Virus record (IMG/VR): IMGVR_UViG_3300020710_000008
Span: 291-64,290 of that record
Length of the DNA stretch: 64,000 nt
Source: a virus
Taxonomy: Duplodnaviria > Caudoviricetes
Strand: one strand, 5' to 3'
The position numbers and the translations under genes were made by a program. This document shows positions 4,403-55,308 of the stretch, piece by piece. The first letter of the stretch is position 1; each line of letters opens with the position of its first letter. Under the pieces are notes generated by a model. That model saw nothing but the letters and a program-made list of their open reading frames with translations, ran no database searches and was not told the origin of the DNA.

Positions 4403-5928
4403 CAGTGAGCCGCCATCCAAGCTTCGATTCGCTCGATATTTCCATCTACATCAGCAAAAACCTTACCAGTGAGTTTACGGATCACCTCCCCCATCTTTGC
4501 GTATTCAAACTCGTTCCATTTGTCAGAGCCGGAATTCAGAGTCATCTCCTGCATCAGCTTGAGGCTCATGATCTCTTCATACATCAAAGTGTCCACGATC
4601 ACATCATGCGTTCTCTTCTTACCCTTTGGCTTCTTCCCTTCCCCGCTACGATCACGGACCCTATGACGCTTAGGGACTAGGATCTCCATGTGGCTCAGGT
4701 TCTTACCGTTGAACTTGCTGATGAAGTCTTTGTTGTTCAGACTCAGAGCAGCCTGAAGGTAGAACGAGTCCACAGCGGGGTTCATCTTGCTGGTCAGACG
4801 GAAGAAGAACTTATCCTTGCTATCAGGATGCTGGCGAAGGACTCGCGCATACAACTGATAGATACGATTGATGTTACGAGAGCAAGTGAAGTCCACCACA
4901 TTGCACAGAGTAGGCATGTTGAATCCAAGCACACCACGCCTCACCACAATCAAGACCTTGATACTCTCATCCTCGATGAACTTCCCGATATTCTCGTTTT
5001 CCACATCACCTTCGGACTCAGAGAGGATACAGCTAACACCTTTCTCGTCAAGAATAGAACGAATATCTCGTCCCTGCTTGATGGAGTGAGCAGCGATCAT
5101 AGTCTTGTTGAGTTCCCCAAAGACCGCATTGACCTTGTTGAGCTTAACCTTGGAGGCAAAGTTCATGGCATTAATGCTAGTGGCTCCAATCACGCTCTTC
5201 AGGCGGGTCACCATCTCTTCGATCAGGTCATCCAGGGAAGTAGCTGTATCCTCAGTCCTGAGGTCCACCTTGCGCTTCAGGTCACCGTGGATGTTGTAAT
5301 CGCCGGAGATGTCATCCTCCCCCTCTTCTGGGGCATCACTATCAAAGTCTTCGATCTCCTCTTCTCCCTGGCTTCTGAGGTCATAGGAAGACTTCACCAT
5401 TCCGAAGTAGGTATCCTGGACGAAGCCTTCGCCATATACCTCAACACCAGAGGTAATGTGAATAGGACGGTAGGTCTTACCCTGAAGATTATCGTAGACA
5501 AACTTGCTTGGAGTCCCAGTCAAGAGAAGTTCATGCTTGGGTTTGCAAGTCTTGATGATGCTCTGCACCAGCTTTTCAGCGAAATAGAATTCGTGGGCCT
5601 CATCCACGATCAACAGACCAAGCTCCTTTTCGTGGAGCATGGTCTTGATCTTACGAATGGACTGAGGGAGGGTGGTAATGAGATTGGTGTTCCACAGATG
5701 CTTCTCAGCGATCTCGTCATTCCATTGATCCAACAAGACCTTAGTTCCGTGGGTCAAGACCATGACGATCTCCCCACGATCTAGATAATCCTGGGCAATA
5801 GAGAGGGCCATAATGGTCTTACCTCCTGAGGGGCAAGTAGATAGGACCACAGACTTATGGTCCTTGAGGCTGTCTTTGCAAGCCGCTACAGCGGTCTTCT
5901 GGTAGGGGCGTAGTTCTGGCAGGGCCAT
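4402..5928 (-). CDS. Superfamily 2 (DEAH, ResIII-like) helicase
   Basis: LRPYQ, CPSGGKT, IVDEAH, LTGTP, GFNMP, QLYARVLR; SD GGAG. Confidence 0.85.
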   Translation of the reverse strand: MALPELRPYQKTAVAACKDSLKDHKSVVLSTCPSGGKTIMALSIAQDYLDRGEIVMVLTHGTKVLLDQWNDEIAEKHLWNTNLITTLPQSIRKIKTMLHEKELGLLIVDEAHEFYFAEKLVQSIIKTCKPKHELLLTGTPSKFVYDNLQGKTYRPIHITSGVEVYGEGFVQDTYFGMVKSSYDLRSQGEEEIEDFDSDAPEEGEDDISGDYNIHGDLKRKVDLRTEDTATSLDDLIEEMVTRLKSVIGATSINAMNFASKVKLNKVNAVFGELNKTMIAAHSIKQGRDIRSILDEKGVSCILSESEGDVENENIGKFIEDESIKVLIVVRRGVLGFNMPTLCNVVDFTCSRNINRIYQLYARVLRQHPDSKDKFFFRLTSKMNPAVDSFYLQAALSLNNKDFISKFNGKNLSHMEILVPKRHRVRDRSGEGKKPKGKKRTHDVIVDTLMYEEIMSLKLMQEMTLNSGSDKWNEFEYAKMGEVIRKLTGKVFADVDGNIERIEAWMAAH

Positions 5929-6008
5929 GTGTGATTCTCCAAAGGTATTATACTAAGGTTTTCATTAAAGTTGCCAGCCGTTTTTCTTCTGGATCTTTAG
6001 ACCCGGTG

Positions 6009-6590
6009 CTAGGTCTTCTCATGTTTCCTTCTAAGTTCTTTAGTTAAAGGACAAAGAGCATCCAGAGTCACTTTAAACTCAGGATCATAGCAACTCTGAG
6101 AAGGACAAGTGTAGCTCCCCATTAGTCCCCCTAGCTTTCTCTCCACAGGATCATCCGATGTTTTCTTTGGCCGCACACTATGCTTGTTGACGAACTCAAT
6201 GATTTGCTGTTTATTGGTGTTTATAGAGTCTCTCTTGGGGGGTGTTTCCTTTTTAACCACACCTCGTAATGGGCAGAGGGTGTCCAAAAGTAATTTGAAT
6301 GGATGGTCATAGGTGGGGCTTGAAGGAGAGGTAATTCTATTCATACACTCCCCCAATTTTCTTTCCTCCAAATCCCCTAAAGCCTTGCTTGGCCTACGAC
6401 CATTGATCTCAATAAAGGTGACAATCCCTTTCTTTTTTAATTCTGGATTAACAGCCGATGCACAATTTTCATCTACCCACGCTCTGAAATCAGGTCTAAA
6501 GGAGTGGTGTGCTGGACTAGTGTAATTAGAAAATAATCGAGCCAGCCTTCGCTCTTCAGGATCTTCAGAGAACCTGCTCGGTCTTCTCAC
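6009..6590 (-). CDS. HA-like repeat protein, paralog of 3977..4402
   Basis: Three RRP...D.EER.LG...Y.SP...YDP.F repeats; likely GTG start at 6590 after GGAGGAGG. Confidence 0.6.
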   Translation of the reverse strand: MRRPSRFSEDPEERRLARLFSNYTSPAHHSFRPDFRAWVDENCASAVNPELKKKGIVTFIEINGRRPSKALGDLEERKLGECMNRITSPSSPTYDHPFKLLLDTLCPLRGVVKKETPPKRDSINTNKQQIIEFVNKHSVRPKKTSDDPVERKLGGLMGSYTCPSQSCYDPEFKVTLDALCPLTKELRRKHEKT

Positions 6591-7143: not shown

Positions 7144-8319
7144 CTACCTTAAATTTTTAAGAGCTTGAAGAACCGCACACCTAGTATAATAATTGCCCAT
7201 TCCCACTTTTAACCCACGAGCATCATCTCTGATTTGATTGAAGTTAGCCACAATGGTAGCCAAATGAGGGAGATTCTCTGGGTTTTCTTCCAAATCCTTA
7301 TCCAATACCGAGACAGGAATATTAGCCTCAGTGTCCTTAGGTTCATAAGCATCATCAAAGAAAGGAATTAGGAAACGCCTCCCCTTATACTCAGAATAGT
7401 ATTCATCGGTATCAGAGGCTGAAGTTAGGACATCTTCTCTAACTGATCTGATTCCATCATCTCCGATTAGCTTAAACGTTACGTTGTTATCTTCCTTGTT
7501 GATTTCACCAAAGATAACAGAATCTTGATCATACTTGCTCTTCCACTTGAGAAGATCAGTTATACGAATATTCATAATAAAGAAAGCCTTTTCAAACTCC
7601 CCATACTTACCCTTATGCTGAATATATCCATAACCAGAGCGATTTAGAATTTCTTTAAACTCAGCCTGCTTCTTGTTGTTCTCTTCTGGAGATGCAGCTA
7701 TACCCTGAGGGTTATCAACTGATATGATCCCAAAGGTGTGAACGGATGGAACTTTACCCTTAAGGATACTCATCAGACGAGGATAGCCAGCGGCTTGCTT
7801 CTCTAAAAGCGATGATTTGAAAGCGATTCTCCTTCTTTCTGGGTATTCTTCTTCAGTTAAAATACTAGCTCTTCTGAGAATCAACTCAGGATCTTGAGTC
7901 ATATATTTAATGAATTCAGTATAACTTAACTCAATAGACTCGCCGGTCCTTAAATTATTGAATCTGCATTGCGTTTGGGGGCCAGCGTAATTGGTCAAGA
8001 AGTCGAGACAAGCCCAAAGAGCTTCGTATGAATTGATAGAGAATTCAAAGGTCCAATAAGATCCATGTCCTCTCATTCTAATAAATCCAGCCTTCATGAC
8101 TTCAGCCAAGATTTCGGCTCTACCTGGACCATCAAAGTCCCAGTCCATCTCCATGATCTTTTGATAGGTCTTTTTAGGTAAACCGATTCCTTCTGCATTA
8201 AGCTCACGCTTAATCCAAGAAGCATGTTCATCTATCCATGCGAATTGACCGGTTTTGGCATTGATCCAAGCACCTTCGTTCATTTTACTACCCTCAGTAT
8301 AGAGTTCTAAATATGCCAA
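7144..8319 (-). CDS. Two-domain phage protein; C-terminal domain DUF3293-like
   Basis: 391 aa; FGIISVDNP...SPEENNK...GKYGEFEKAFFI...YDQDSVIF resembles DUF3293-type phage domains. Confidence 0.5.
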   Translation of the reverse strand: MAYLELYTEGSKMNEGAWINAKTGQFAWIDEHASWIKRELNAEGIGLPKKTYQKIMEMDWDFDGPGRAEILAEVMKAGFIRMRGHGSYWTFEFSINSYEALWACLDFLTNYAGPQTQCRFNNLRTGESIELSYTEFIKYMTQDPELILRRASILTEEEYPERRRIAFKSSLLEKQAAGYPRLMSILKGKVPSVHTFGIISVDNPQGIAASPEENNKKQAEFKEILNRSGYGYIQHKGKYGEFEKAFFIMNIRITDLLKWKSKYDQDSVIFGEINKEDNNVTFKLIGDDGIRSVREDVLTSASDTDEYYSEYKGRRFLIPFFDDAYEPKDTEANIPVSVLDKDLEENPENLPHLATIVANFNQIRDDARGLKVGMGNYYTRCAVLQALKNLR

Positions 8320-8696
8320 TATCCTTGAAAATACCCATTGACTGTTTCAAAATCAATCTGTCTAAAAGAATAAACTAAAATTTCTCTTAGCGGACTATCC
8401 TCCCAGTCATGAGTAATAACCACTTCTCCAAGAGTATGTGAGAACTGGAGCAGATTAGTATCTTCAGGAGTGATAATGGCGATCCTATCAATCTCCCTGT
8501 TCTCTGCTGATCTGATAATCCATTTGATGGACTCATCCAGAGTTTTAGAATTGTAGTCAGAGATGAAATTCGTTCCACCAAAAGTGCATTGCCATGGATT
8601 GACATTCAAAGTTATAGCTAGCTCATCCATGTAAGCAAAATCAGCTACGGCATCACATTCAAGGTCTCCAGTGATAGGTCTTAGGACTAATGGCAT
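8307..8696 (-). CDS. Hypothetical protein
   Basis: Likely start ATG 8696 after GAGGAG; tight packing with neighbours. Confidence 0.6.
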   Translation of the reverse strand: MPLVLRPITGDLECDAVADFAYMDELAITLNVNPWQCTFGGTNFISDYNSKTLDESIKWIIRSAENREIDRIAIITPEDTNLLQFSHTLGEVVITHDWEDSPLREILVYSFRQIDFETVNGYFQGYWHI

Positions 8697-8698
8697 TT

Positions 8699-8902
8699 CT
8701 ACTCCTCGTAATGATAAACTTTCTTTTCTTGCCAGATCCCCCAAATTGTCAAGACAAAAGGGTAAAGAATGATGGCTCCAACAACAGCCCAAATGTTGAA
8801 GACAAGGGCAAGACCGAGAAATACCCAAGTAACCATGACATCACTCAGCCATAGCCTGCCCTTAATGGGGTCTACGAATTTATTTCGAAGCGACTGTAGC
8901 AT
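8699..8902 (-). CDS. Small membrane protein
   Basis: Two hydrophobic segments; start overlaps the upstream stop. Confidence 0.6.
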   Translation of the reverse strand: MLQSLRNKFVDPIKGRLWLSDVMVTWVFLGLALVFNIWAVVGAIILYPFVLTIWGIWQEKKVYHYEE

Positions 8903-9156
8903 TACTGTTTTCCTTTAAAGACTAATTCTTTTTTGGTAATCTCAGGACCGTTTCCTGATAGGGTTTCCACATACCAAATATTACCATTTGGCTCTCTGAT
9001 CAGATACCTAAAGGGGGTATCCCCATCTGGAGAAAGTGAAATTTCGCTATTTGGAAAAGTTGATTCCACACTTTTACGACAGTAATAGGCAGAGGTGGCG
9101 TTGTTATTGCACCCAACCAACATAACTAAAACGAGCAAGGAAAATAAATATCTCAT
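8902..9156 (-). CDS. Putative lipoprotein
   Basis: MRYLFSLLVLVMLVGC lipobox. Confidence 0.65.
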   Translation of the reverse strand: MRYLFSLLVLVMLVGCNNNATSAYYCRKSVESTFPNSEISLSPDGDTPFRYLIREPNGNIWYVETLSGNGPEITKKELVFKGKQ

Positions 9157-9422
9157 CCCTTGGACCCCTCTTCACGAAAAGTTCTGAAATTAGGTTTCAT
9201 ATGCTTTTTAGCCAAAAGCTCAGCACGAGAAAACCAAAACTTTTTGTTATCCCCATCTACTTTGACTTTCACCTCGGGTTCATGAGAAGTCCAATCATTG
9301 TTTTGAGTGGTATTACACCAACGGCGACCAATAGAGTATTTCTCTAGAGTCTTCCACTCTCCTTGAGCCCCAAATAAAATCATGAAGCAGTAGCGAATAA
9401 ATAGTCCGATATTGTATAACAT
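9153..9422 (-). CDS. Hypothetical protein
   Basis: Likely ATG 9422 (MLYNIGLF) after AGAGG. Confidence 0.5.
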   Translation of the reverse strand: MLYNIGLFIRYCFMILFGAQGEWKTLEKYSIGRRWCNTTQNNDWTSHEPEVKVKVDGDNKKFWFSRAELLAKKHMKPNFRTFREEGSKG

Positions 9423-9426
9423 TGGC

Positions 9427-9627
9427 TTACCTCTTTTCCAAAAAATTGAGCATTCCATCCAGTTCAACAACTGCACACAAATAACCTGAGGCCACTCCAT
9501 TATAGAACGAAGCGTCTGTTGGATTGTTGCTCCAATTAGCTTCATGCGCTCTAGCCGCTGCATGTTCTGCCTTTCTCCTGAGGATATTGCGAAGTGATTG
9601 AATAGCTGCTTTTTCTAGCTTAGTCAT
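9427..9627 (-). CDS. Hypothetical protein
   Basis: ATGA overlap with the upstream kinase gene. Confidence 0.55.
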   Translation of the reverse strand: MTKLEKAAIQSLRNILRRKAEHAAARAHEANWSNNPTDASFYNGVASGYLCAVVELDGMLNFLEKR

Positions 9628-10055
9628 ACCACCTCGCTAAACCCATAGGGAACATCAATACGAGCAATCATACGCTGAATAGATTCCAAAGGAACCTTAT
9701 GGACATTACGCTGGAAGCAGAGTTCAGCTTCTCCCTTGATAACATCCATCCAGACCTCATAGCCACGGCTACGGGCCTCTTCAACATAGAACTTACGCTC
9801 CCTGGCAGTGGTATTAGTGTTATCCACAATCACCAACTCTTTGCCAGCAACGAGAGCATCCACATAAAGGCTTTGGCAAGTTTGGTGCGCCATATACAAC
9901 TTAGCTCGATCAAAGACATAGTTTCCATCCACCTCAAAATAGTGATCCGCCGAGACAATGGCTCGGTTCTCTTCCTTAATATCCTTAATATGATCTTTGA
10001 CCCAGGTGGACTTTCCAGAACCCGGCGCTCCGACCATCAAGATGACTTTTCGCAC
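9624..10055 (-). CDS. P-loop polynucleotide-kinase-like protein (AAA_33 type)
   Basis: LMVGAPGSGKSTW, VSADHYF, VIVDNTN; GTG start 10055 after GGAGG. Confidence 0.8.
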   Translation of the reverse strand: MRKVILMVGAPGSGKSTWVKDHIKDIKEENRAIVSADHYFEVDGNYVFDRAKLYMAHQTCQSLYVDALVAGKELVIVDNTNTTARERKFYVEEARSRGYEVWMDVIKGEAELCFQRNVHKVPLESIQRMIARIDVPYGFSEVV

Positions 10056-10240
10056 TTTTCCTCCGTATTCGAATTTGCCCACTTCATGCCATAATACACA
10101 TTGAAAGCTGCACACTGCATGGCTGTAAACCAAGCTATGGACTTCAGAAGAGCGTGTGGACCAAGAAGAAAACTAACAATAAAAATCCCAGCGGACCCAA
10201 TACCCACACTTGTCAAATACAGCTTAGTTGACTTTTTCAT
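10037..10240 (-). CDS. Small membrane protein
   Basis: Two hydrophobic helices. Confidence 0.55.
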   Translation of the reverse strand: MKKSTKLYLTSVGIGSAGIFIVSFLLGPHALLKSIAWFTAMQCAAFNVYYGMKWANSNTEEKCEKSS

Positions 10241-10779: not shown

Positions 10780-10938
10780 TCATCGCTTACCTCCTTTATT
10801 TGGGATGGGTTCTAGGCCAGTTCCGTTACACCAGCCACACTTAGGACTTCCAGTGACATCGTAGATTCCAGAACCACTACAGGCAGTGCATTTGCGGGGT
10901 TCGATTCTGATTCCAATGTGCTTTTTCTTGAACTTCAT
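10780..10938 (-). CDS. Small DnaJ-type zinc-finger protein (52 aa)
   Basis: CTACSGSG...CGWCNGTG (two CxxCxGxG motifs); GGAGG SD. Confidence 0.65.
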   Translation of the reverse strand: MKFKKKHIGIRIEPRKCTACSGSGIYDVTGSPKCGWCNGTGLEPIPNKGGKR

Positions 10939-11630
10939 CGCTTCCTCCTTTGGGTTACATGCTTCCAGCGTTTACCTTTTCGGATGCAACAGACAATACT
11001 AGGGCTGATACCATACTTTTTTGCTAAGGCAACTCCAGGCTCTTCACTAATAAAAATTTCTCTAACTTGATCATCGGTAAGTTTAGCCGCATAGGAAGCC
11101 ATTCCCTGCACGGCTAGTGTGAGGCTCAGCCTGTTCTGATCTGAGATGGTTTTGCCAAATCGTGGATGATTGCTTCCGCTGTTAGCATCGGATATCTTTT
11201 GCCTACTTTCCGCTGACAGGGTATGGCCTATTTGACCTATTGCTATGTTTTCCCTAGCCTCTTCAGATTTTTGTTTTCCTTTCCTCTCAATCGAATACCG
11301 CAATTTAGTAGCTTCAGAGTGTTTCCTACCTGACATTGGGGCTAGGGCGTCTTTACTTATGTTATAGCACTGCACCCCACCATCCCAATACACATCCAAG
11401 CAGCGTTGTTCAAATAACAGCAGATCCCTTTCGTCACAATATAAAACTACCTCGTAACTAAATGTGTCTCCATACCTATTGTAAGAATCCTGAAGATGTG
11501 GATTAGCGTGTTTATTGTGCTTAAGTCCTGTTTTGTGGTAAGCCCATCTGCGAGGAATATTTTTAGATGACCCAATATACACCTTATTGGTTACGAAGTT
11601 TGTTATTTTATAGATGCCAGATGTTTTCAT
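10935..11630 (-). CDS. GIY-YIG homing endonuclease with NUMOD3-like repeats and C-terminal HTH
   Basis: GIYKITN...VYIGSS...RW..H; HSEATK and HTLSAESR repeats. Confidence 0.9.
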   Translation of the reverse strand: MKTSGIYKITNFVTNKVYIGSSKNIPRRWAYHKTGLKHNKHANPHLQDSYNRYGDTFSYEVVLYCDERDLLLFEQRCLDVYWDGGVQCYNISKDALAPMSGRKHSEATKLRYSIERKGKQKSEEARENIAIGQIGHTLSAESRQKISDANSGSNHPRFGKTISDQNRLSLTLAVQGMASYAAKLTDDQVREIFISEEPGVALAKKYGISPSIVCCIRKGKRWKHVTQRRKR

Positions 11631-12052
11631 GCAATATCTTTGCTGTTTGCTATTGTGCTATGGAATGTTTTTTCAAAACCCTCAATGGGATCATGATATT
11701 CCGGGGACAATGGAGCGTTGTGAAGTCCAAGTTCTGCTCGGATTTCTTCAAGGCGAGTGGAGAAGCAATCCAGCCACCAATAGACTTTACCCTGGAAGAT
11801 GTAGTTGCTGTAGGTGAATTCTACCCGCTCACCCTCATACTTACCCCAAGCCTTGAGATTTTTGGGCTTCTCGTAACGGACCACAGTGATGTGGGGATCG
11901 TAACGCTGTCCATTGGCCTTGAACCACTTGGGAATGAGGGACTTGTAAAAGAGACCGATACCCTTATCAATATTCAAAACGAGTCGGTACCCGTAGCCAG
12001 GTACATGGTCGTAGTGGAGAGTCCCCACGGACTTGAAGAAAGTCTCGCTCAT
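11627..12052 (-). CDS. 2H phosphoesterase family protein
   Basis: Two HxT motifs: PHITVV and FHSTIA. Confidence 0.7.
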   Translation of the reverse strand: MSETFFKSVGTLHYDHVPGYGYRLVLNIDKGIGLFYKSLIPKWFKANGQRYDPHITVVRYEKPKNLKAWGKYEGERVEFTYSNYIFQGKVYWWLDCFSTRLEEIRAELGLHNAPLSPEYHDPIEGFEKTFHSTIANSKDIA

Positions 12053-12076: not shown

Positions 12077-13801
12077 CTACTTCTTCTCCAATATTTTTAC
12101 GAGCCCATCATAATACTTTTTCTCTAATTCTAAGTGAGCATACATAATTCCATCTGTTTTATTAGTATAATACTCTGTTATACTAATATGTTTAACAAGC
12201 CAATTGACAACTTGATTATGGTCAAAACCTGAAATGCCCTTCTTCTTAAAGCCATCTACTAAATTATTAGCAAATTCAATTGGACCTGAATTTGCTAAAG
12301 CTTTCCTCTGGAACCCCACATCTCCAAGAGAGTTAGCTGCTTCTTGAGCGACAAACCCCAAAGATGTGGGAGTTGTGGGGCTCTTTACCCAAGTAGGTAG
12401 AGATTGCTGAACCATAGCTGGAGGTTCAGGCGGCATATCTAAAGCGGCCTTTTTCCAATTGGCGATGTTGACTTCCCCATCAGCAGAGCCCTCAGGCTTG
12501 CTCACATCTTTGGCAAATCCCCAATGAACCTCAGCATCAGTTCCTCTAGCTTTGGAGTTATGTATAGCTAATTGTTTGACTTGCTGCATGACTGGCCCAG
12601 GTAGCTCCTTGAGGTTATCTGGATTACGAACTACGATATGAGAGCCTGGAGCCCCTGCGACATGGAACCAAAAATCATTAGAATTAGCTACTTCAAGAGA
12701 TAAAATGTCGTTTTCAATGGCAGAACGTCCGATAAGAATCTGGAAGCCCTCAAAATCCTGAAGCTTATACGGAGCCTTAGCGATTTTCCCAATCTTAGGA
12801 ACTACATTGGTTTCCCAATATTCTTTGTTCCCAATCCTATTGAAGTCAATCCCTGGAATAGCCAGCCATTTCTTGCTATGTTCTTTCGCGGCATTGACAT
12901 CAAATCCTGTGTAATCATCTTTTACCCATAACCATTTGTGATGCCAAATAGCAGCCGTGCTACCATTTTTATGATCACCATTTGACTTAACTACAACGTA
13001 GTTACCAGCTACAGGTTCATCAGCGGTATCAAAATCAGGGGACTCGAAAAAGGTGTAAGTTCCATCTTTATTCCACTTAATGACGTTATAATTGGGAAGA
13101 CTGACTAGTGCAATCTCCTCTGCTTTAGCCAAGGCTTCTTGGTTTGGAAGCGAACCTTTATAGTTCCTATGGAGATAGATAGCGCCCCCAATGTCCTTAC
13201 CCACCCCTAAATAGGATCTTCTAATAGGAGTCCCTTTTTCTGTTTTTAAATCAGAGGTCTTAGATCCACCCTTAGCTTCGATGGCCAATCTAGCAGCTTC
13301 AGCCGTGTAGGGCTTCCAATCCTTCTTTCCAAAGAACTTGACATATAAATCCTGCCAATCCTTTTCTGATTTGATATTAGGCATATGCGTAACCAAGAAG
13401 CCAACATCAACAGGATCGTTGGCCTTTTCCTCTGGCCTTCCTGACATGATCTTCAAACATAGAAGATATTCCTTTGAGGGTAATTCTATACTGAGATTTG
13501 AAAATTGAGGGCCTGGAACTGTCTGGCCTTTCTTGGGAGCATAGTAATCTTTACTGGTATCATTGAACCAGTCATCAGATAGATCCATTTCCCAGGTCAC
13601 TTGTTCCACAGCAGCTTGCAACTCGGGTGACATATACCCAGCATCTAGATCCTTGACCTCTCTGGGGAAGTCTGGGAACTGGAACATGATGGCAGCACCA
13701 CCAGTGATAACCACAGTAGCTTTCTGGTTCTTGGCCTTTAAAACGGCATTTACGGCTTCTAGAGCGGCCATTACTTTGGAGCGGTCCATATTCATAATCA
13801 C
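12077..13801 (-). CDS. Multidomain protein: DUF6036/MenT-like nucleotidyltransferase + phosphorothioation-associated-protein-like domain + NFACT-R (DUF814) + unknown C-terminal domain
   Basis: GGAAI...REVKDLD...DWFND (NTase); GKDIGGAIYLH...YNVIK...PDFD...IWHHK; GRSAIEND.L...DFWFHVAGAPGSH.VV (NFACT-R). Confidence 0.7.
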   Translation of the reverse strand: MIMNMDRSKVMAALEAVNAVLKAKNQKATVVITGGAAIMFQFPDFPREVKDLDAGYMSPELQAAVEQVTWEMDLSDDWFNDTSKDYYAPKKGQTVPGPQFSNLSIELPSKEYLLCLKIMSGRPEEKANDPVDVGFLVTHMPNIKSEKDWQDLYVKFFGKKDWKPYTAEAARLAIEAKGGSKTSDLKTEKGTPIRRSYLGVGKDIGGAIYLHRNYKGSLPNQEALAKAEEIALVSLPNYNVIKWNKDGTYTFFESPDFDTADEPVAGNYVVVKSNGDHKNGSTAAIWHHKWLWVKDDYTGFDVNAAKEHSKKWLAIPGIDFNRIGNKEYWETNVVPKIGKIAKAPYKLQDFEGFQILIGRSAIENDILSLEVANSNDFWFHVAGAPGSHIVVRNPDNLKELPGPVMQQVKQLAIHNSKARGTDAEVHWGFAKDVSKPEGSADGEVNIANWKKAALDMPPEPPAMVQQSLPTWVKSPTTPTSLGFVAQEAANSLGDVGFQRKALANSGPIEFANNLVDGFKKKGISGFDHNQVVNWLVKHISITEYYTNKTDGIMYAHLELEKKYYDGLVKILEKK

Positions 13802-13818
13802 CTACACATTAGAAATGA

Positions 13819-14208
13819 TTAGTCAGAATTTCCATGAATAGGGCAAGCACCACTGACAATCCCATAGCCAGTCCCCCAACGTTCTGCATTGTCTATCTTA
13901 GGGCAACGGCATTTAGGCACAGTATACCAGTGATGGAAATTGGCATTCTGTTCAAAACCCCAAACTTGCTGGAGTTCAAACTGAAGCCTCTTCCATTCCA
14001 TATTAAGAACTTTTAGAGTTCCTACGTCATCAGTATGCTCCATAGCATTTAGAATATTTTGTACCCCCAGGTGAAGAGTCCTGAGTTCCCCCAATCCTTC
14101 TAGGGTAATCTTCTGCTTCTTACACAGATTGGGATTGATATAGAAGGGCTCTCGGCCAGGATATTCAACAATGAAGCTTTCTGACTTACTGTAGTCAATT
14201 TTAGTCAT
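13819..14208 (-). CDS. Hypothetical phage protein with C-terminal Cys/His cluster
   Basis: PKCRCPKIDN...CPIHG. Confidence 0.65.
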   Translation of the reverse strand: MTKIDYSKSESFIVEYPGREPFYINPNLCKKQKITLEGLGELRTLHLGVQNILNAMEHTDDVGTLKVLNMEWKRLQFELQQVWGFEQNANFHHWYTVPKCRCPKIDNAERWGTGYGIVSGACPIHGNSD

Positions 14209-14217
14209 ACTTTCTCC

Positions 14218-14856
14218 TTAAATTTCAAAAATGATTGGTGCATTGATCGGCCTCAAACGATTATCGCAAATGCAGGCATTTACAAATACTGTATCCCCCC
14301 GCCTTCCGCGACCATAACCTGGATGAACGTGACCAAATACATGATACTTCGGTTTCTTATTCTGAACCGCTTGCAGGAGTTGGTAGTTACCCAGACATTT
14401 CTGTTTAAAATCTTCACAGACCTCATCAAACATTCCGTACGGAGGAACATGGGTAATCAAAAGATCCAATTCATCTGGGATTTCTTGATGAAGATCCTGA
14501 AGATCCTTGGTATCATCTGTAAAGTTAGGATGAACGGGGGCTCCATAGACAAATAGGTCTTTCTTGCCATCTTCTTGAAGGAACCGTCCATCATTTTGCA
14601 AATAGATGATGTTATTTTCTCTACAGAGGATCTGAATGATCTCCCTGTCAATGTGGTAATCGTGATTACCCGGCACATAAATCTTGTGTTTGTAAGGGAG
14701 GTAACCATACCAATCGAAGAAGGGGATTAATTCATCAAGAGTCCCCTTATCTGTAGCATCACCCGCATGGACAATCACATCCCCCTCTGGCAGCTTACCG
14801 TCCAGAACCTCGTGCTGATTATGCGTATCAGTAATAGCTACTATTTTCCAAGTCAA
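14218..14856 (-). CDS. Calcineurin-like metallophosphoesterase
   Basis: DTH, HAGD, GNHD, THVPP, FGHVH. Confidence 0.9.
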   Translation of the reverse strand: MTWKIVAITDTHNQHEVLDGKLPEGDVIVHAGDATDKGTLDELIPFFDWYGYLPYKHKIYVPGNHDYHIDREIIQILCRENNIIYLQNDGRFLQEDGKKDLFVYGAPVHPNFTDDTKDLQDLHQEIPDELDLLITHVPPYGMFDEVCEDFKQKCLGNYQLLQAVQNKKPKYHVFGHVHPGYGRGRRGDTVFVNACICDNRLRPINAPIIFEI

Positions 14857-14909: not shown

Positions 14910-15107
14910 TTAAATATAATCCAAGAAAGAAGTCATGAAATCTTTAAATCCTTCACGATTCAAATCTTGGCCTGATTTAGTAAAACGACTCTTTAGAACT
15001 CTATAGCGGCCACCTTCAGTCACAACGATTAAAGAAGCATTGTGAGTTTGGGTTAAGGGGAGAGACCCCAATTCTTTTTCAGTTGCAATGATAATCGTTC
15101 TAGTCAT
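14910..15107 (-). CDS. Hypothetical protein
   Basis: Likely start ATG 15107, overlapping the upstream stop. Confidence 0.5.
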   Translation of the reverse strand: MTRTIIIATEKELGSLPLTQTHNASLIVVTEGGRYRVLKSRFTKSGQDLNREGFKDFMTSFLDYI

Positions 15108-15606
15108 CGCTGCCCCCACAACTAGAACTTGAGGAGTCACTAGAGCTTGAGGAGTCCCCCCAATCACTAGAACTTGAAGACTGCTCTCCCCAATCACTAT
15201 GAGACTCAATGGAAATGGGGACATAGGGCTCAGGAGTGGGATCTGGTGTTGGATCGGGAGTAGAGGAATCAGTAAGAATATCACTCACTAAAGCGGCAGC
15301 AGTAACTCCGATAGCCAGATCCATCAAATCATCTGAGCCAGCATCCTCTTCTACTACTACATTTGTCTTAGGAGTCCCCCAAAAAGACTGCTTCCTGCCC
15401 AGCGTGGCAGCAGCGTAAGGAGGAATATCCTTGCTCACTGGAACGACTAGCACAGTTGGCTTATCTGGGGTATCATAGGAACTGATAATCTCCGGGTAAA
15501 CTGGAGCCATTAGATCAGTAATAGGCTGATCAGTCTTATGAACCTGATACCAAACTCCAGCCGCAATTGCAGCCAGTCCAACGATAGCAACTACGATCCA
15601 AATCAT
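15100..15606 (-). CDS. Membrane-anchored protein with Ser/Asp-rich low-complexity tail
   Basis: N-terminal transmembrane segment; SSSSSDWGDSSSSSDSSSSSCGGSDD. Confidence 0.7.
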   Translation of the reverse strand: MIWIVVAIVGLAAIAAGVWYQVHKTDQPITDLMAPVYPEIISSYDTPDKPTVLVVPVSKDIPPYAAATLGRKQSFWGTPKTNVVVEEDAGSDDLMDLAIGVTAAALVSDILTDSSTPDPTPDPTPEPYVPISIESHSDWGEQSSSSSDWGDSSSSSDSSSSSCGGSDD

Positions 15607-15614
15607 TATTTCTC

Positions 15615-16658
15615 CTATGGGATGAGACTACGAGCAGCTTGACTAATCATAAAATTGATTTGAGTTCCGGACATGCCCTCTTTGATGTTTTGCTTGATGA
15701 AGAAATCCAAGTCCACTACCAAATTAGTCAGGTCTCGTGGCATGACCATGAGCCAATCCAAAGGCATACCACGTTTGATACCCTTGCTAATACTGATCAA
15801 ATCATCAGCTTCGGGGCCTTCTTTTTTCCAGCGAGTGATCATATCAAACAGGCTACAAGCATTATTATAAGAGTCACTATAACCCAATTTTTTCAGTGCC
15901 TGGGCACGGATACTCTTGGGGATAGCACAGAAAAACTCAACCATATACATGTTCCAAGAGTAATCTCGGCCCTCCACAAAAAAGGGACCAATGGGGAGCC
16001 ATTCCTTAATTGCTCTAGCCACCTCAATATTCTGGTTCAGCACCCACATGAACGTTCTCAGATTCTTGGCCTTTTCCAGTTCTCCACGGATACGGTCAGC
16101 CGGAACTGCATACAATTCCTTAGAGGCCACAGCCATCAGCTTATAAGTCTCATGGGTAACAGTCCAGTTTCCGGAAGAAGCAAAACGAGCTACCCTCAAA
16201 ACACGAACTGGGTCTTCAGCAAATGCTTCAGAACAAGCGTGGAGCAGCAAGTTAGCCATATCATGAGCAGACCTCTCAATAGGGCAAACCAGACCCATAT
16301 CAGGGTGCCACAGCATTGCATTGATAGTCAGGTCACGGCGCAGACAGTCCTCCTTGAAGGAGGGAGTGTAGCTGGTTTCAAACCCAGTATAGCCTACACC
16401 AGTCTTGCGCTCTGTGCGAGTGCAAGCCAGTTCACCAACTCCGGTGTGGAAGACAGGGAAAGCTTTACCGACCTTCTCATAGCCCATACCCTCAACACGA
16501 TCAGGGTCCATGTTGGTTACAAAGTCGAAGTCCTTGGGGGTCTTCCCCAACATTAGATCACGAACAGCCCCGCCAACTAGATAGACATGACCACCAAACC
16601 CTGCGGCTCGGTCATTCAGTTCTTTCATGTGGTCAATGATGTGTTGCGGAACTTGCAT
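15615..16658 (-). CDS. cca: tRNA nucleotidyltransferase (CCA-adding / poly(A) polymerase class II)
   Basis: YLVGGAVRD..LG..PKDFD, DC.RRDLTINAM, AF.EDPVRVLRVARF. CCA versus poly(A) specificity cannot be decided from motifs alone. Confidence 0.8.
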   Translation of the reverse strand: MQVPQHIIDHMKELNDRAAGFGGHVYLVGGAVRDLMLGKTPKDFDFVTNMDPDRVEGMGYEKVGKAFPVFHTGVGELACTRTERKTGVGYTGFETSYTPSFKEDCLRRDLTINAMLWHPDMGLVCPIERSAHDMANLLLHACSEAFAEDPVRVLRVARFASSGNWTVTHETYKLMAVASKELYAVPADRIRGELEKAKNLRTFMWVLNQNIEVARAIKEWLPIGPFFVEGRDYSWNMYMVEFFCAIPKSIRAQALKKLGYSDSYNNACSLFDMITRWKKEGPEADDLISISKGIKRGMPLDWLMVMPRDLTNLVVDLDFFIKQNIKEGMSGTQINFMISQAARSLIP

Positions 16659-30729: not shown

Positions 30730-31758
30730 TTACAATCCAAAAAACGACTTTAACAGCGAACCAAGCTTTTTTACCCATGACATTAAAAAATTCGTGCATG
30801 ACTGCTCCTTATTTTTGACTTTCAAAATTTCATGTCTAACTGCGTTTATTTGTGTGTTCTTATACCATTGATTCAGCCATTCATAATCTGGCTTCTCTCG
30901 GAGAGTGGAGGTTTCAAACAACCTATCTCCCTTTGCCATCAGTTCGTCAATGAGGTTGCTGACTTCTCCATTAGTGAGCTTACCATTACGGATGTCAAGC
31001 AGGAGTTCCTTTTCAGGACGAGGGTAAGTTACCGTCCCATACTCAAGGATTTCGTTCATTTCGCTTATAATGCGTACCGCATGATATAGGGCCTTCAAGT
31101 CCTTACCATCGTTCTCCTTGGCTTTCACGGCGCGAGTCCCGTAGGTTTTGCGAAGTTTGACCAGGGCATCCAACCACAGCTTAACAGTGGTGGTCTCCCC
31201 AAAGGATTTACCACAGATTTCCATCAAACGGGTCTCCACCTCACCCTTGACATCTGTCCAGAATCTAACCGTTGGGCGACCAGTAAAAGCCACCGTAAGT
31301 TGATCCCAGCAAAGTCGAGGGAGGAAGTTGGGGGGATAGCCACTAAGGAAGAAGATCACTTCATCTAAAAGCTGGAGCTTCTCACCTTTGAGGGAGTATT
31401 TGACAGCTTGATCTCGGGCATACCCAACAAAGGGCTTCAGAGCCTTGGAGACTACCTTGTCCTTGTTGAGAACCAACTCCTCCCATTCAGGAGTAGACTC
31501 CAGCCACATATTCTGGGGAGCAAATAACATAGAATAAGCCACAGTCTGACCAGAAGCCATCAGGTCAGCAAAAGCCTTGATGTAATACATTTCATGCTCT
31601 TCGTTTTTTTCCTCATCCTTCCACTGGATATTAGTGGGGGCAAGACTGACAAGCTCATCCAAAGACTGAGTGAACACACCCTTGAAATCCTTATCGGAGG
31701 TAGGCTGAGCCACACCATAAAGGTGAGAGCCGTATAGACATTTAAACAGGGTCTTCAT
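30730..31758 (-). CDS. Pol-beta-superfamily nucleotidyltransferase (PF10127-like)
   Basis: YGSHLYG...TSD.D.KG; K.L.HA.R...E..EIL..G. Confidence 0.8.
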   Translation of the reverse strand: MKTLFKCLYGSHLYGVAQPTSDKDFKGVFTQSLDELVSLAPTNIQWKDEEKNEEHEMYYIKAFADLMASGQTVAYSMLFAPQNMWLESTPEWEELVLNKDKVVSKALKPFVGYARDQAVKYSLKGEKLQLLDEVIFFLSGYPPNFLPRLCWDQLTVAFTGRPTVRFWTDVKGEVETRLMEICGKSFGETTTVKLWLDALVKLRKTYGTRAVKAKENDGKDLKALYHAVRIISEMNEILEYGTVTYPRPEKELLLDIRNGKLTNGEVSNLIDELMAKGDRLFETSTLREKPDYEWLNQWYKNTQINAVRHEILKVKNKEQSCTNFLMSWVKKLGSLLKSFFGL

Positions 31759-53460: not shown

Positions 53461-54236
53461 TTCATTTTCTTTCCAGCTTCATAGGCTATAACGAAAGCCG
53501 CACCTGTTTTCAACCAACCATTGAGCCTTTCACGTTTAACCCTAGCATCAGCATCTTTGACTAATCCATTTAAATTAGCTTCTCTGGCGACATGCTCTGC
53601 ATTAATGGCATCTTTCTCTGTAGATATCTGATTACCTTTTTGAACTTCAAGATTCAGCCCATCCACTTGTTTAGTTAAAGCTCCAGTGAGCCCAACTTGA
53701 GTAGTATAAGCGGTCTCCAACTGAGGAATACGGAGGCTTTCCTTATACCAAGTCCAAATTGTGGGTACATTCTTAGTTGGGGTAGTAGCTGATCCGAGCA
53801 TAGGATCTGTTCTAGGTTTTGGCACAGTAAGTGTGAATCTAACTCCGGAAGAAGCAATATCTGTTACAGCAACATTAACATCTGTAGGTGGAGCCGTGAC
53901 AGGAGCGGGTGGTGGATTATTGGCAACTTTGCCCTTCCACATCTCTACTTGATTCTTTAGGACAACATTGGAGGCAGTGAGAGCGTCTTTATCTTTCTGA
54001 TCAGCCGCAGCCTTGTCATTAAGGACTTGAAGCTGCTTCTTGAACTCATTGTCCTTAGCCTTTTCAGCGGCCTCTTGTTTATCTTTGTACCCACACCAAG
54101 CTCTCCACCCTTGCCATGCAACAGCAAGGAAGACACAAATGCAGATAATGATGAGATATTGCTTAATTACCATGCCTGCTTTGTTTAATCCAGCAGTTAC
54201 TCCATCCAATAGCGCCATTTTATCTCCTTTGGCCAA
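53457..54236 (-). CDS. Membrane-anchored coiled-coil protein (i-spanin-like topology)
   Basis: N-terminal transmembrane segment then long heptads; function uncertain. Confidence 0.45.
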   Translation of the reverse strand: MAKGDKMALLDGVTAGLNKAGMVIKQYLIIICICVFLAVAWQGWRAWCGYKDKQEAAEKAKDNEFKKQLQVLNDKAAADQKDKDALTASNVVLKNQVEMWKGKVANNPPPAPVTAPPTDVNVAVTDIASSGVRFTLTVPKPRTDPMLGSATTPTKNVPTIWTWYKESLRIPQLETAYTTQVGLTGALTKQVDGLNLEVQKGNQISTEKDAINAEHVAREANLNGLVKDADARVKRERLNGWLKTGAAFVIAYEAGKKMK

Positions 54237-55308
54237 GAATTCTAACGTAATTCAAGCAGCCGGTAGCGGTGGAATCTAGGGGGTTAGCCGATGCTCTAGC
54301 TTCACCAACCTTGAATCTCACATCCAAGTTACCCATGAAGACTTCATTAAATAAGTCCATGAAACCAACTGCCTTAGTAGTTCCACCTGAGATTACTACA
54401 GGGATGGTCTCGGCAATTTCAGTACGATGTTCATTCATACCGAAGAATACGTTTGTGGCGTGAACCAGCTTAGTTAGAAGATCACGATACATCATGCTAA
54501 TAGCCTCAGCTTGGCGTTCTGTCTTGGTATCATCAGAGTCCTGCTTGTCCAGCACTAGACCAGAAGTTACATTAACACCACGCTCTTTCAAAAGGGTAAT
54601 GTGAGACACCAGAGAACTAGTCTGATCAGCGGCAGCATTATCAATAAAATCCCCGCCAAAAGGCAAAGAGAATACGCGAACAGGTAGGCCCTTATAGACT
54701 AGGGCTACGTTAGTCATACCGGCACCAAAGCTAATAAATAAGCCGGTAAGTGGTAGTTCCCCTTTCTTGGGAGTAATGGTTTCAGCATAACCAATGGCAG
54801 CGGCCTCATTCAAAGGCTTAGCTGTGAAGCCAAGATCAGTGATTAGATTCTTGAAAAATCCTGTATGGAAAGTTAGTCCAATATCCTGGGAGGGTTTGAA
54901 ATTAGCAGGCTTGTCTGCATCAAAGAGAGGACCGGGGACAGAGAAAGCCACTAGCTCTTTCTCAACCGCAGGCTTGCCTAGAATTTGAGATAGGATAAGC
55001 TTGAGGATTTCCTTACCATCTTCTTCCTTGGGGCTAATAAAGCCCTTGGAAAGCGGTCTACGAAGCTCTCCTCCTAGAACACCAACTAGGTTGATGGCAT
55101 CATTACCAACAACATAGAGTTCGTTGGAGCCTTCAATGTACTCAACACCAGAAATGTCAAGAGTTGGAGCATTATCAAGGGAGAGAGCTAGGAAGCAGTC
55201 TCTAACGGAAGATAGGTCTACCGTCTTTCCTTGGTCGGATTTTGCAGATACGATATACGCAGTTCCAATATCCACTCCGCATCCGTTGAATTCTTTGTTA
55301 TCAGCCAT
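54220..55308 (-). CDS. Actin-fold ATPase (MreB/ParM/FtsA superfamily)
   Basis: GVDIGT, LNEAAA, SFGAGMTN, GGDFID, ISGGT: phosphate-1, connect, phosphate-2 and adenosine motifs. Confidence 0.8.
   Translation of the reverse strand: MADNKEFNGCGVDIGTAYIVSAKSDQGKTVDLSSVRDCFLALSLDNAPTLDISGVEYIEGSNELYVVGNDAINLVGVLGGELRRPLSKGFISPKEEDGKEILKLILSQILGKPAVEKELVAFSVPGPLFDADKPANFKPSQDIGLTFHTGFFKNLITDLGFTAKPLNEAAAIGYAETITPKKGELPLTGLFISFGAGMTNVALVYKGLPVRVFSLPFGGDFIDNAAADQTSSLVSHITLLKERGVNVTSGLVLDKQDSDDTKTERQAEAISMMYRDLLTKLVHATNVFFGMNEHRTEIAETIPVVISGGTTKAVGFMDLFNEVFMGNLDVRFKVGEARASANPLDSTATGCLNYVRILGQRR

Follow-up and report, generated by a model that had tools for sequence, protein, structure and literature searches.

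A four-domain jumbo-phage protein that joins a MenT-class nucleotidyltransferase to NFACT-R: a candidate factor for tRNA acceptor ends

The window analysed here comprises 64,000 nucleotides of phage DNA (positions 291 to 64,290 of the IMG/VR record IMGVR_UViG_3300020710_000008), and its minus strand carries, at 12077-13801, a gene for a 574-residue protein (P0001) that combines a nucleotidyltransferase (NTase) of the AbiEii/MenT/DUF6036 class, a widespread domain without counterpart in Pfam, an NFACT-R domain and a small C-terminal domain. We tentatively favour, with somewhat less than even confidence, the view that this is a jumbo-phage multi-domain factor whose targets would be tRNA acceptor (3'-CCA) ends, on the large ribosomal subunit or close to it, within a gene set for RNA end-healing or counter-defence. 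This reading was adopted because the three larger modules can each be connected, independently, with tRNA 3' ends and because the gene is flanked by genes for a tRNA nucleotidyltransferase, a metallophosphoesterase, a 2H-type phosphoesterase and a kinase resembling polynucleotide kinase, with an RlaP-family enzyme encoded further away. The NFACT-R domain would serve as a dock, either onto 50S subunits or onto tRNA on the ribosome, at its CCA end; the NTase would add nucleotides at tRNA 3' ends, thereby rebuilding or remodelling them, and the middle domain would recognise or clean a nucleic-acid end. The net purpose would be the restoration of translation after host abortive-infection effectors have damaged or blocked tRNA ends.

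Toxins that act against phages at the tRNA 3' end include AbiEii/MenT nucleotidyltransferases, CapRel/FaRel-type pyrophosphotransferases and nucleases. To our knowledge, little has been described of how phages reverse such damage, beyond CCA-adding enzymes and healing and sealing of the T4 type. If our reading is true, the protein would be a candidate in which an enzyme of the toxins' own class is joined to a domain that binds ribosomes or tRNA and for which catalysis has recently been reported in yeast Jlp2.

Domain organisation

The open reading frame (ORF), established by translation and by comparison with homologues, spans 12077-13801 including the stop codon and counts 574 residues from a GTG. 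Relatives at E values of 1e-258 to 1e-160 in a collection of 5.8 billion proteins mark it as a real gene. Residues 1-178 (13268-13801) form the NTase domain, assigned by profiles, motifs and fold. Residues 184-342 (12776-13252) form a domain corresponding to PHROG 16075, which was delimited by profile, alignment and model and is referred to as the HHKW domain after its 'GK-YxH-EP-HHKW' signature. Residues 345-452 (12446-12769) were assigned to NFACT-R by Pfam, sequence matches and fold. A disordered, proline-rich linker (residues 455-477, 12371-12439), for which the predicted local distance difference test score (pLDDT) falls below 50, leads to residues 478-574 (12080-12370), modelled as a small alpha/beta domain of Lpp20-like fold. 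By sequence, this last domain returned nothing but repeat-protein noise from the PDB, and it is shared only with the homologue P0006. The full-length AlphaFold2 model has a mean pLDDT of 83 and a predicted template modelling score (pTM) of 0.37, and modules 1-178, 184-342, 345-452 and 478-574 fold separately. An earlier note on this DNA, made by a model from the sequence alone, had described four modules in one protein of 574 residues, which is what the single ORF and the four folded units bear out.

The nucleotidyltransferase domain

Fold matches place residues 1-178 among the NTase folds of the AbiEii/MenT/DUF6036 class. The protein's own sequence scored 18.9 bits against Pfam DUF6036, under the threshold of 23.6, and was matched weakly by the PADLOC AbiEii model (E 0.039). 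The alignable N-terminal domain of the homologue P0009 scored 34.9 bits against Pfam AbiEii (threshold 22.5), in a match spanning the C-terminal motif region. In the alignment of six homologues G34 and G35, D51-L-D53, K117, R122, D129 and D132 are invariant. Residues 1-178 thus contain Pol-beta motifs I and II (hG[GS] ... [DE]x[DE]) as well as the C-terminal motifs III and IV, the latter compared by conservation within the family and not residue by residue against K189 and D211 of MenT3; the invariant residues agree with the four motifs described for DUF1814 enzymes (PMC7450476). Despite the weak Pfam score of the protein itself, the AbiEii match of P0009, the invariant motifs and the fold matches lead us to conclude that residues 1-178 are a Pol-beta NTase of the AbiEii/MenT/DUF6036 class with its catalytic motifs intact, as the earlier note had proposed.

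MenT toxins, which belong to the same NTase class, extend tRNA CCA ends with nucleotides (PMC7450476, PMC10435456). The domain resembles the MenT, AbiEii (DUF1814) and DUF6036 enzymes in its Pol-beta fold, in a size near that of MenT1, in the hGG and DxD motifs and in the C-terminal K/R/D residues, but differs from them in being fused to three more domains and in being encoded by a lytic-type jumbo phage. A word-based search returned no short stand-alone homologues of it, and tblastn gave no match in a set of 50,697 phage records. When the family alignment was used for a profile search of the PDB, matches were obtained for NFACT-R only and none for the NTase.

The NFACT-R domain

That residues 345-452 are a bona fide NFACT-R domain is beyond doubt. 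They scored 44.7 bits against the Pfam NFACT-R family (PF05670; cut-off 29.8), matched FbpA and RqcH by sequence and gave corresponding fold matches. The motifs of the family are kept (N364, D376-x-W378-x-H380 and P385-G-S-H388), so that the earlier assignment of this region stands. RqcH depends on the DWH motif of its NFACT-R domain for binding to 50S at the A-site finger (10.1101/2020.09.03.281279). Yeast Jlp2 has NFACT-R as its sole recognised domain; its hydrolysis of peptidyl-tRNA is reported to need H44, and a conserved cavity has been modelled with a CCA-peptide (preprint, 10.1101/2025.09.04.673968). The histidines of DFWFH380 and H388 are eight residues apart, which is the spacing of H44 and H52 in Jlp2. 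The Jlp2 residue D46 corresponds to alanine in the 574-residue protein (A382) and to aspartate in P0006. FBPS, a bacterial homologue of RqcH that is not known as a hydrolase, likewise has a histidine equivalent to H380.

Pfam did not detect an NFACT-N domain in the protein, in which residues 1-342 are taken up by the NTase and HHKW domains. Unlike RqcH and NEMF, it has neither NFACT-N nor helix-hairpin-helix motifs nor a coiled-coil/M domain, and an NTase is joined to it instead; since these parts are lacking, it cannot be an Ala-tailing factor. CCDC25 and Jlp2 likewise carry NFACT-R without other NFACT domains, whereas here NFACT-R is joined to an NTase.

Among the phage records there were 14 NFACT-R matches. 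The majority come from Firmicute 'phage' fragments without annotation, possibly pieces of host DNA, and two of the 14 are uncultured phages of 0.63-0.64 Mb. In one of these two, the 642-kb LR756502 (L006), a 229-residue protein encoded at 5632-6321 has a C-terminal NFACT-R domain (Pfam E 1.7e-14) with DxWxH kept; its gene lies directly after a Gp23-like major capsid gene, with portal and prohead-protease-like genes nearby.

The HHKW domain

The middle domain matched PHROG 16075 (unknown function; E 2e-31) and gave no match in Pfam. An exhaustive phmmer search of 1.84 billion representative sequences returned 847 clusters at E≤1e-3, 573 of them at E≤1e-10. Alignment of 39 sequences showed G-K, P, H-H-K-W, V, Y, F and S to be invariant, and Y-x-H, E and R nearly so. 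The conserved positions here are G201 and K202, Y209, H211, E262 and P263, H287, H288, K289 and W290, Y297, F300, S309 and W312, while the consensus arginine is replaced by His308. To judge by conservation, the invariant lysine, histidine, glutamate, HHK and serine residues resemble those of a site for binding or catalysis.

The domain was modelled with a pLDDT of 92 and a pTM of 0.85. Comparison of this model with the PDB by Foldseek gave a best E of 0.26 (Ugi), and a profile search of the PDB gave a best E of 0.98. BFVD contained a single, unnamed homologue, and the ESM Atlas, searched with the stand-alone homologue P0065, returned 'hypothetical' clusters only (scores ≤0.89, TM ≤0.37). An interpretation of HHKW as a phospholipase D-like HxK...D motif was dropped, as the aspartate is not conserved and no phospholipase D occurs among the PDB fold matches; phospholipase D appeared solely in an Atlas cluster, at TM 0.37. 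The outcome is the definition of a widespread domain, present in 847 representative clusters, with invariant polar residues and without a match in solved structures or Pfam, which makes it a target for structural and functional work whatever the 574-residue protein does.

HHKW domains occur as stand-alone proteins of 150-175 residues, in hypothetical proteins of KVP40-like Vibrio phages and as one bead in giant proteins of 3000-4800 residues. As fusion partners, CCA-adding enzymes are the most common: 28 of the proteins retrieved combine a full-length one with the domain, which usually stands at or near the N-terminus. Further partners are NUDIX, an RNA ligase, a protein with YafQ and NTase modules, and ParB-N together with a methyltransferase, and the polyvalent-type modules RadC, acetyltransferase and ART are also joined to it. 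On a 368-kb IMG/VR contig (L023, 7965-10920), a 296-residue HHKW-domain protein and the products of two neighbouring genes all begin with MIKLKxLLxE, a shared N-terminus reminiscent of the capsid-targeting sequences of T4.

Relationship to TIGR04096

The earlier note had likened the middle domain to repeats of the DNA-phosphorothioation-associated putative methyltransferase TIGR04096, here without the methyltransferase. The whole protein gave no match to the TIGR04096 model at E≤1, and residues 1-177, 175-350 and 448-574, scanned singly, gave none at E≤10. Membership in NCBIfam calls for at least 150 bits and a methyltransferase domain, and true members score 537-595 bits. As no match to the model appeared even at E≤10, the 574-residue protein is, by these profile searches, not a member of TIGR04096, and no methyltransferase domain was found in it, as the note had said.

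The resemblance nevertheless has a basis. With a profile of the middle domain, E values of about 1e-58 were reached for proteins carrying the NCBI name 'DNA phosphorothioation-associated putative methyltransferase'. The TIGR04096 model accounts for about 475 residues of them, and the strongly matching copy of the domain is found beyond this stretch, on its C- or N-terminal side. The accessory domain fused to many TIGR04096 proteins is 40-45% identical to the middle domain here; the methyltransferase domain is theirs and is absent from the 574-residue protein. In addition, in 12 of 12 proteins the profile picked up a degenerate copy of the N-terminal half of the domain within the TIGR04096 core (about residues 320-400; 16-26 bits, against 5.9 bits for the best of 252 reversed or shuffled control sequences). 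This inner copy has neither the HHKW half nor the invariant lysine and glutamate. The sequence comparisons thus point to a real but indirect homology, through an accessory module of many TIGR04096 proteins and a homologous segment of their core; the claimed resemblance holds in this sense and does not hold as a match to the model itself.

Nothing links the middle domain specifically to phosphorothioation. A DNA-directed factor, tied to defence by phosphorothioate or other DNA modification (of the Dnd/Ssp type), in which the middle domain would read or process modified DNA and NFACT-R would bind DNA, seems to us very improbable. The name 'phosphorothioation-associated' reflects gene neighbourhood only, and TIGR04096 has no known substrate. 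Genes of the dnd/ssp type or for DNA modification were not present among the tested neighbours in the window or among the genes listed on the syntenic contigs; all tested neighbours are of RNA end-healing types, and enzymes of tRNA and RNA are the most frequent partners of the middle domain. For a module that accompanies the uncharacterised TIGR04096 methyltransferases, these RNA and tRNA enzymes provide a first functional context.

Variation and rarity of the architecture

In the six aligned homologues the NTase is present in all, NFACT-R in five, and the middle is swapped. The HHKW domain occupies this position in the 574-residue protein and in P0002, P0004 and P0005; it is replaced by a short unrelated segment in P0006 and by a region with an HExxH motif in P0009. 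P0008, encoded at 8001-9746 of a 212-kb metagenomic contig (L004), consists of the NTase, a NUDIX domain and an RSH-type HD_4 hydrolase domain, without NFACT-R.

The full architecture was found in about six protein clusters of a large metagenomic protein collection. When the whole protein was searched against the phage records, only residues 183-345 matched among the records listed. Pattern scans of IMG/VR gave no copy of the architecture: the family alignment retrieved no relatives, and the scan with the single protein retrieved loci of the middle domain only. An apparent extension of the L023 match into NFACT-R was rejected as spurious. By these searches, the four-part architecture is rare and absent from cultured phages and from the IMG/VR contigs searched. 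The remark in the earlier note that no description of it was known is consistent with this, within the databases covered. Neither the NTase-NFACT-R combination nor the HHKW domain is among the components in a review of jumbo-phage genes (PMC7824862), in which a text search found NFACT unmentioned.

The swapping of domains bears on the possibility that the protein is a small polyvalent anti-defence protein, whose modules would be independent, directed at different host systems and joined only for co-delivery or co-expression. The protein is alike to phage polyvalent proteins in its multi-domain, shuffled architecture: domains are exchanged freely within the family, the middle domain recurs alone or as a bead in the giant proteins, and the model itself has the appearance of beads on a string. 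The shared N-terminus of the HHKW protein and its two neighbours in L023, and the position of the NFACT-R gene behind the capsid gene in L006, hint at packaged cargo. However, the protein is small, the NTase is accompanied by NFACT-R in five of the six aligned members, with variation confined to the middle, which suggests cooperation, and the protein has no tag resembling a capsid-targeting sequence and is encoded in an RNA-metabolism cluster, not in a virion module. We therefore regard independent modules as an unlikely explanation.

Genomic neighbourhood

All genes of the window described in this section lie on the minus strand. Upstream of the 574-residue gene are a 129-residue protein of phrog_16704 (unknown function; 13819-14208), a calcineurin-like metallophosphoesterase recognised in profile tests of the neighbours (14218-14856) and a tRNA nucleotidyltransferase with a head domain of the CCA-adding type (15615-16658; phrog_2244, E 1.2e-59). 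In the P0002 contig, the gene directly upstream encodes a protein of the same size as the first; in L002 such a gene lies a short way upstream. Directly downstream lies the gene for a 141-residue 2H-type phosphoesterase with two HxT motifs (HIT and HST; 11627-12052), which matched phrog_12204 and gave weak matches to Pfam 2H-SAK and 2'-5' RNA ligase; proteins of 137-153 residues hold this slot in three related contigs. A GIY-YIG/NUMOD3 homing endonuclease (10935-11630) is inserted between the 2H gene and that for an AAA_33 P-loop kinase resembling polynucleotide kinase (9624-10133, also from the profile tests), at a place occupied by nothing but small ORFs in L002 and in the P0002 contig. A 342-residue Pol-beta NTase of the RlaP family (30730-31758; Pfam E 5.6e-14) is the second RNA-repair NTase of the window, 17 kb from the 574-residue gene.

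Around P0009, on the 286-kb contig L002, and around P0002 the order is tRNA NTase, metallophosphoesterase, a protein of 128-129 residues, NTase-X-NFACT-R, a protein of 151-153 residues and AAA_33 kinase. Counting the window, in which the 2H-like protein of 141 residues takes the downstream slot, the order is kept in three contigs. A kinase is also encoded near P0006, and a metallophosphoesterase and an AAA_33 kinase within a few kb of P0008. The co-location of kinase, phosphoesterases, CCA-adding enzyme and RlaP is like that in phage RNA-repair sets (the T4 Pnkp/Rnl paradigm and jumbo-phage genes, PMC7824862); unlike in the T4-type and jumbo-phage sets, a ligase was not found near the 574-residue gene.

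This setting also bears on a further explanation, in which the protein is a host-shutoff toxin: the MenT-like NTase would extend and thereby inactivate the 3' ends of host tRNAs, NFACT-R would bring it to the ribosome or to tRNA, and translation would be redirected or the host disabled. The neighbours are enzymes of repair type (CCA-adding, 2H, kinase, phosphatases) and not takeover genes, and phage tRNA genes, which could make up for host tRNAs that have been inactivated, were not found in the window. Unlike in MenT/AbiEii systems, an antitoxin-like partner was not recognisable among the tested neighbours, the upstream 129-residue protein being without a known family, and the NUDIX and HD_4 hydrolases of P0008 suggest reversal and not damage. 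We accordingly consider host shutoff improbable.

A 391-residue protein (7144-8319) has a weak DUF3293 match. In L002 and L005, too, genes for DUF3293 proteins lie downstream of that for the AAA_33 kinase, so that the 391-residue gene may be part of the conserved block. A 168-residue ORF (15100-15606), placed between the genes for the tRNA nucleotidyltransferase and the metallophosphoesterase, encodes a hydrophobic N-terminal segment and a Ser/Asp-rich tail and has no family match.

Assessment of the tRNA-end reading

Several points weigh against a factor for tRNA ends at the large subunit. The enzymatic activity, the substrate and the ribosome binding of the protein are predictions. The middle domain is joined to TIGR04096-type and ParB-linked methyltransferases as well as occurring in giant polyvalent proteins, which also fits a DNA-directed or a generic role, and the NFACT-R domain of CCDC25 binds DNA as well (7eof). 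The proposed correspondence of H380 to H44 of Jlp2 and H41 of CCDC25 rests on the WFH-type motif and the histidine spacing and not on a residue-level alignment. The low pTM gives no sign that the modules pack against one another. Neither an RNA ligase nor a tRNA gene was found in the 64-kb window, and the synteny among related phages may reflect shared ancestry and not shared function.

On the other side, toxSAS pyrophosphotransferases are, like the AbiEii/MenT enzymes, among the host effectors directed against phages at this tRNA end. Small alarmone hydrolases of the RSH family undo the pyrophosphorylation of tRNA CCA ends by toxSAS enzymes (10.1101/2021.04.30.441581), and we count the RSH-type domain in the middle slot of P0008 as support for repair. 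In a more specific version of the tRNA-end reading, to which we give little credence, the protein would be a 'de-blocking' machine that works on tRNA acceptor ends while docked on the ribosome. NFACT-R would bind the 50S subunit or the CCA end and might itself hydrolyse aminoacyl- or peptidyl-tRNA in the manner of Jlp2. The HHKW domain would be a new hydrolase or end-recognition fold that clears lesions left by the toxins of host abortive infection (for example MenT/AbiEii extensions, toxSAS pyrophosphates or cyclic phosphates), after which the NTase would rebuild the tRNA end. The NUDIX and RSH-type HD domains and the HExxH region of the sister proteins would then be lesion-specific cleaning cassettes in the same slot.

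Each of the four domain assignments has held up, and the interpretation in the earlier note is supported in part. Its functional ideas, namely a coupling of tRNA modification to recognition of stalled ribosomes or a polyvalent anti-defence protein, appear to agree with the RNA-repair genes nearby and with what has been published on MenT, RqcH and Jlp2. The protein fits among the multi-domain proteins of phage RNA repair and counter-defence, as a variant with an uncharacterised but widespread domain.

Gene start and source phage

The gene is a single intact ORF of 574 residues from the GTG at 13801, or of 570-574 residues depending on the start; a plus-strand reading of the same interval was rejected because of its many stop codons. 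Translation probably begins at an ATG instead, either that at 13795 (residue M3) or that at 13789 (M5), which would make the protein 2-4 residues shorter, as the homologues begin with MNMDRS or MDRS and as a Shine-Dalgarno sequence is suitably placed, GGTGA standing 8 nucleotides ahead of the second ATG. The sequence immediately upstream is taGGTGAttATGaatATG.

The window derives from an uncultivated jumbo-type phage. Nearly all of its ORFs of at least 100 residues lie on the minus strand, and it also encodes helicases, an NAD-dependent ligase and a UvsX-like recombinase, whose nearest cultured relative, at 46% identity, is that of the 309-kb Tunturiibacter phage Tunturi_5. No DNA near-identical to the window was present among the phage records, and contigs bearing homologues of the gene measure 212 and 286 kb. 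A 362-residue actin-like protein (54220-55308, minus strand) matches Pfam Volactin (E 5.8e-47) and MreB, and thus represents an actin homologue in a jumbo phage.

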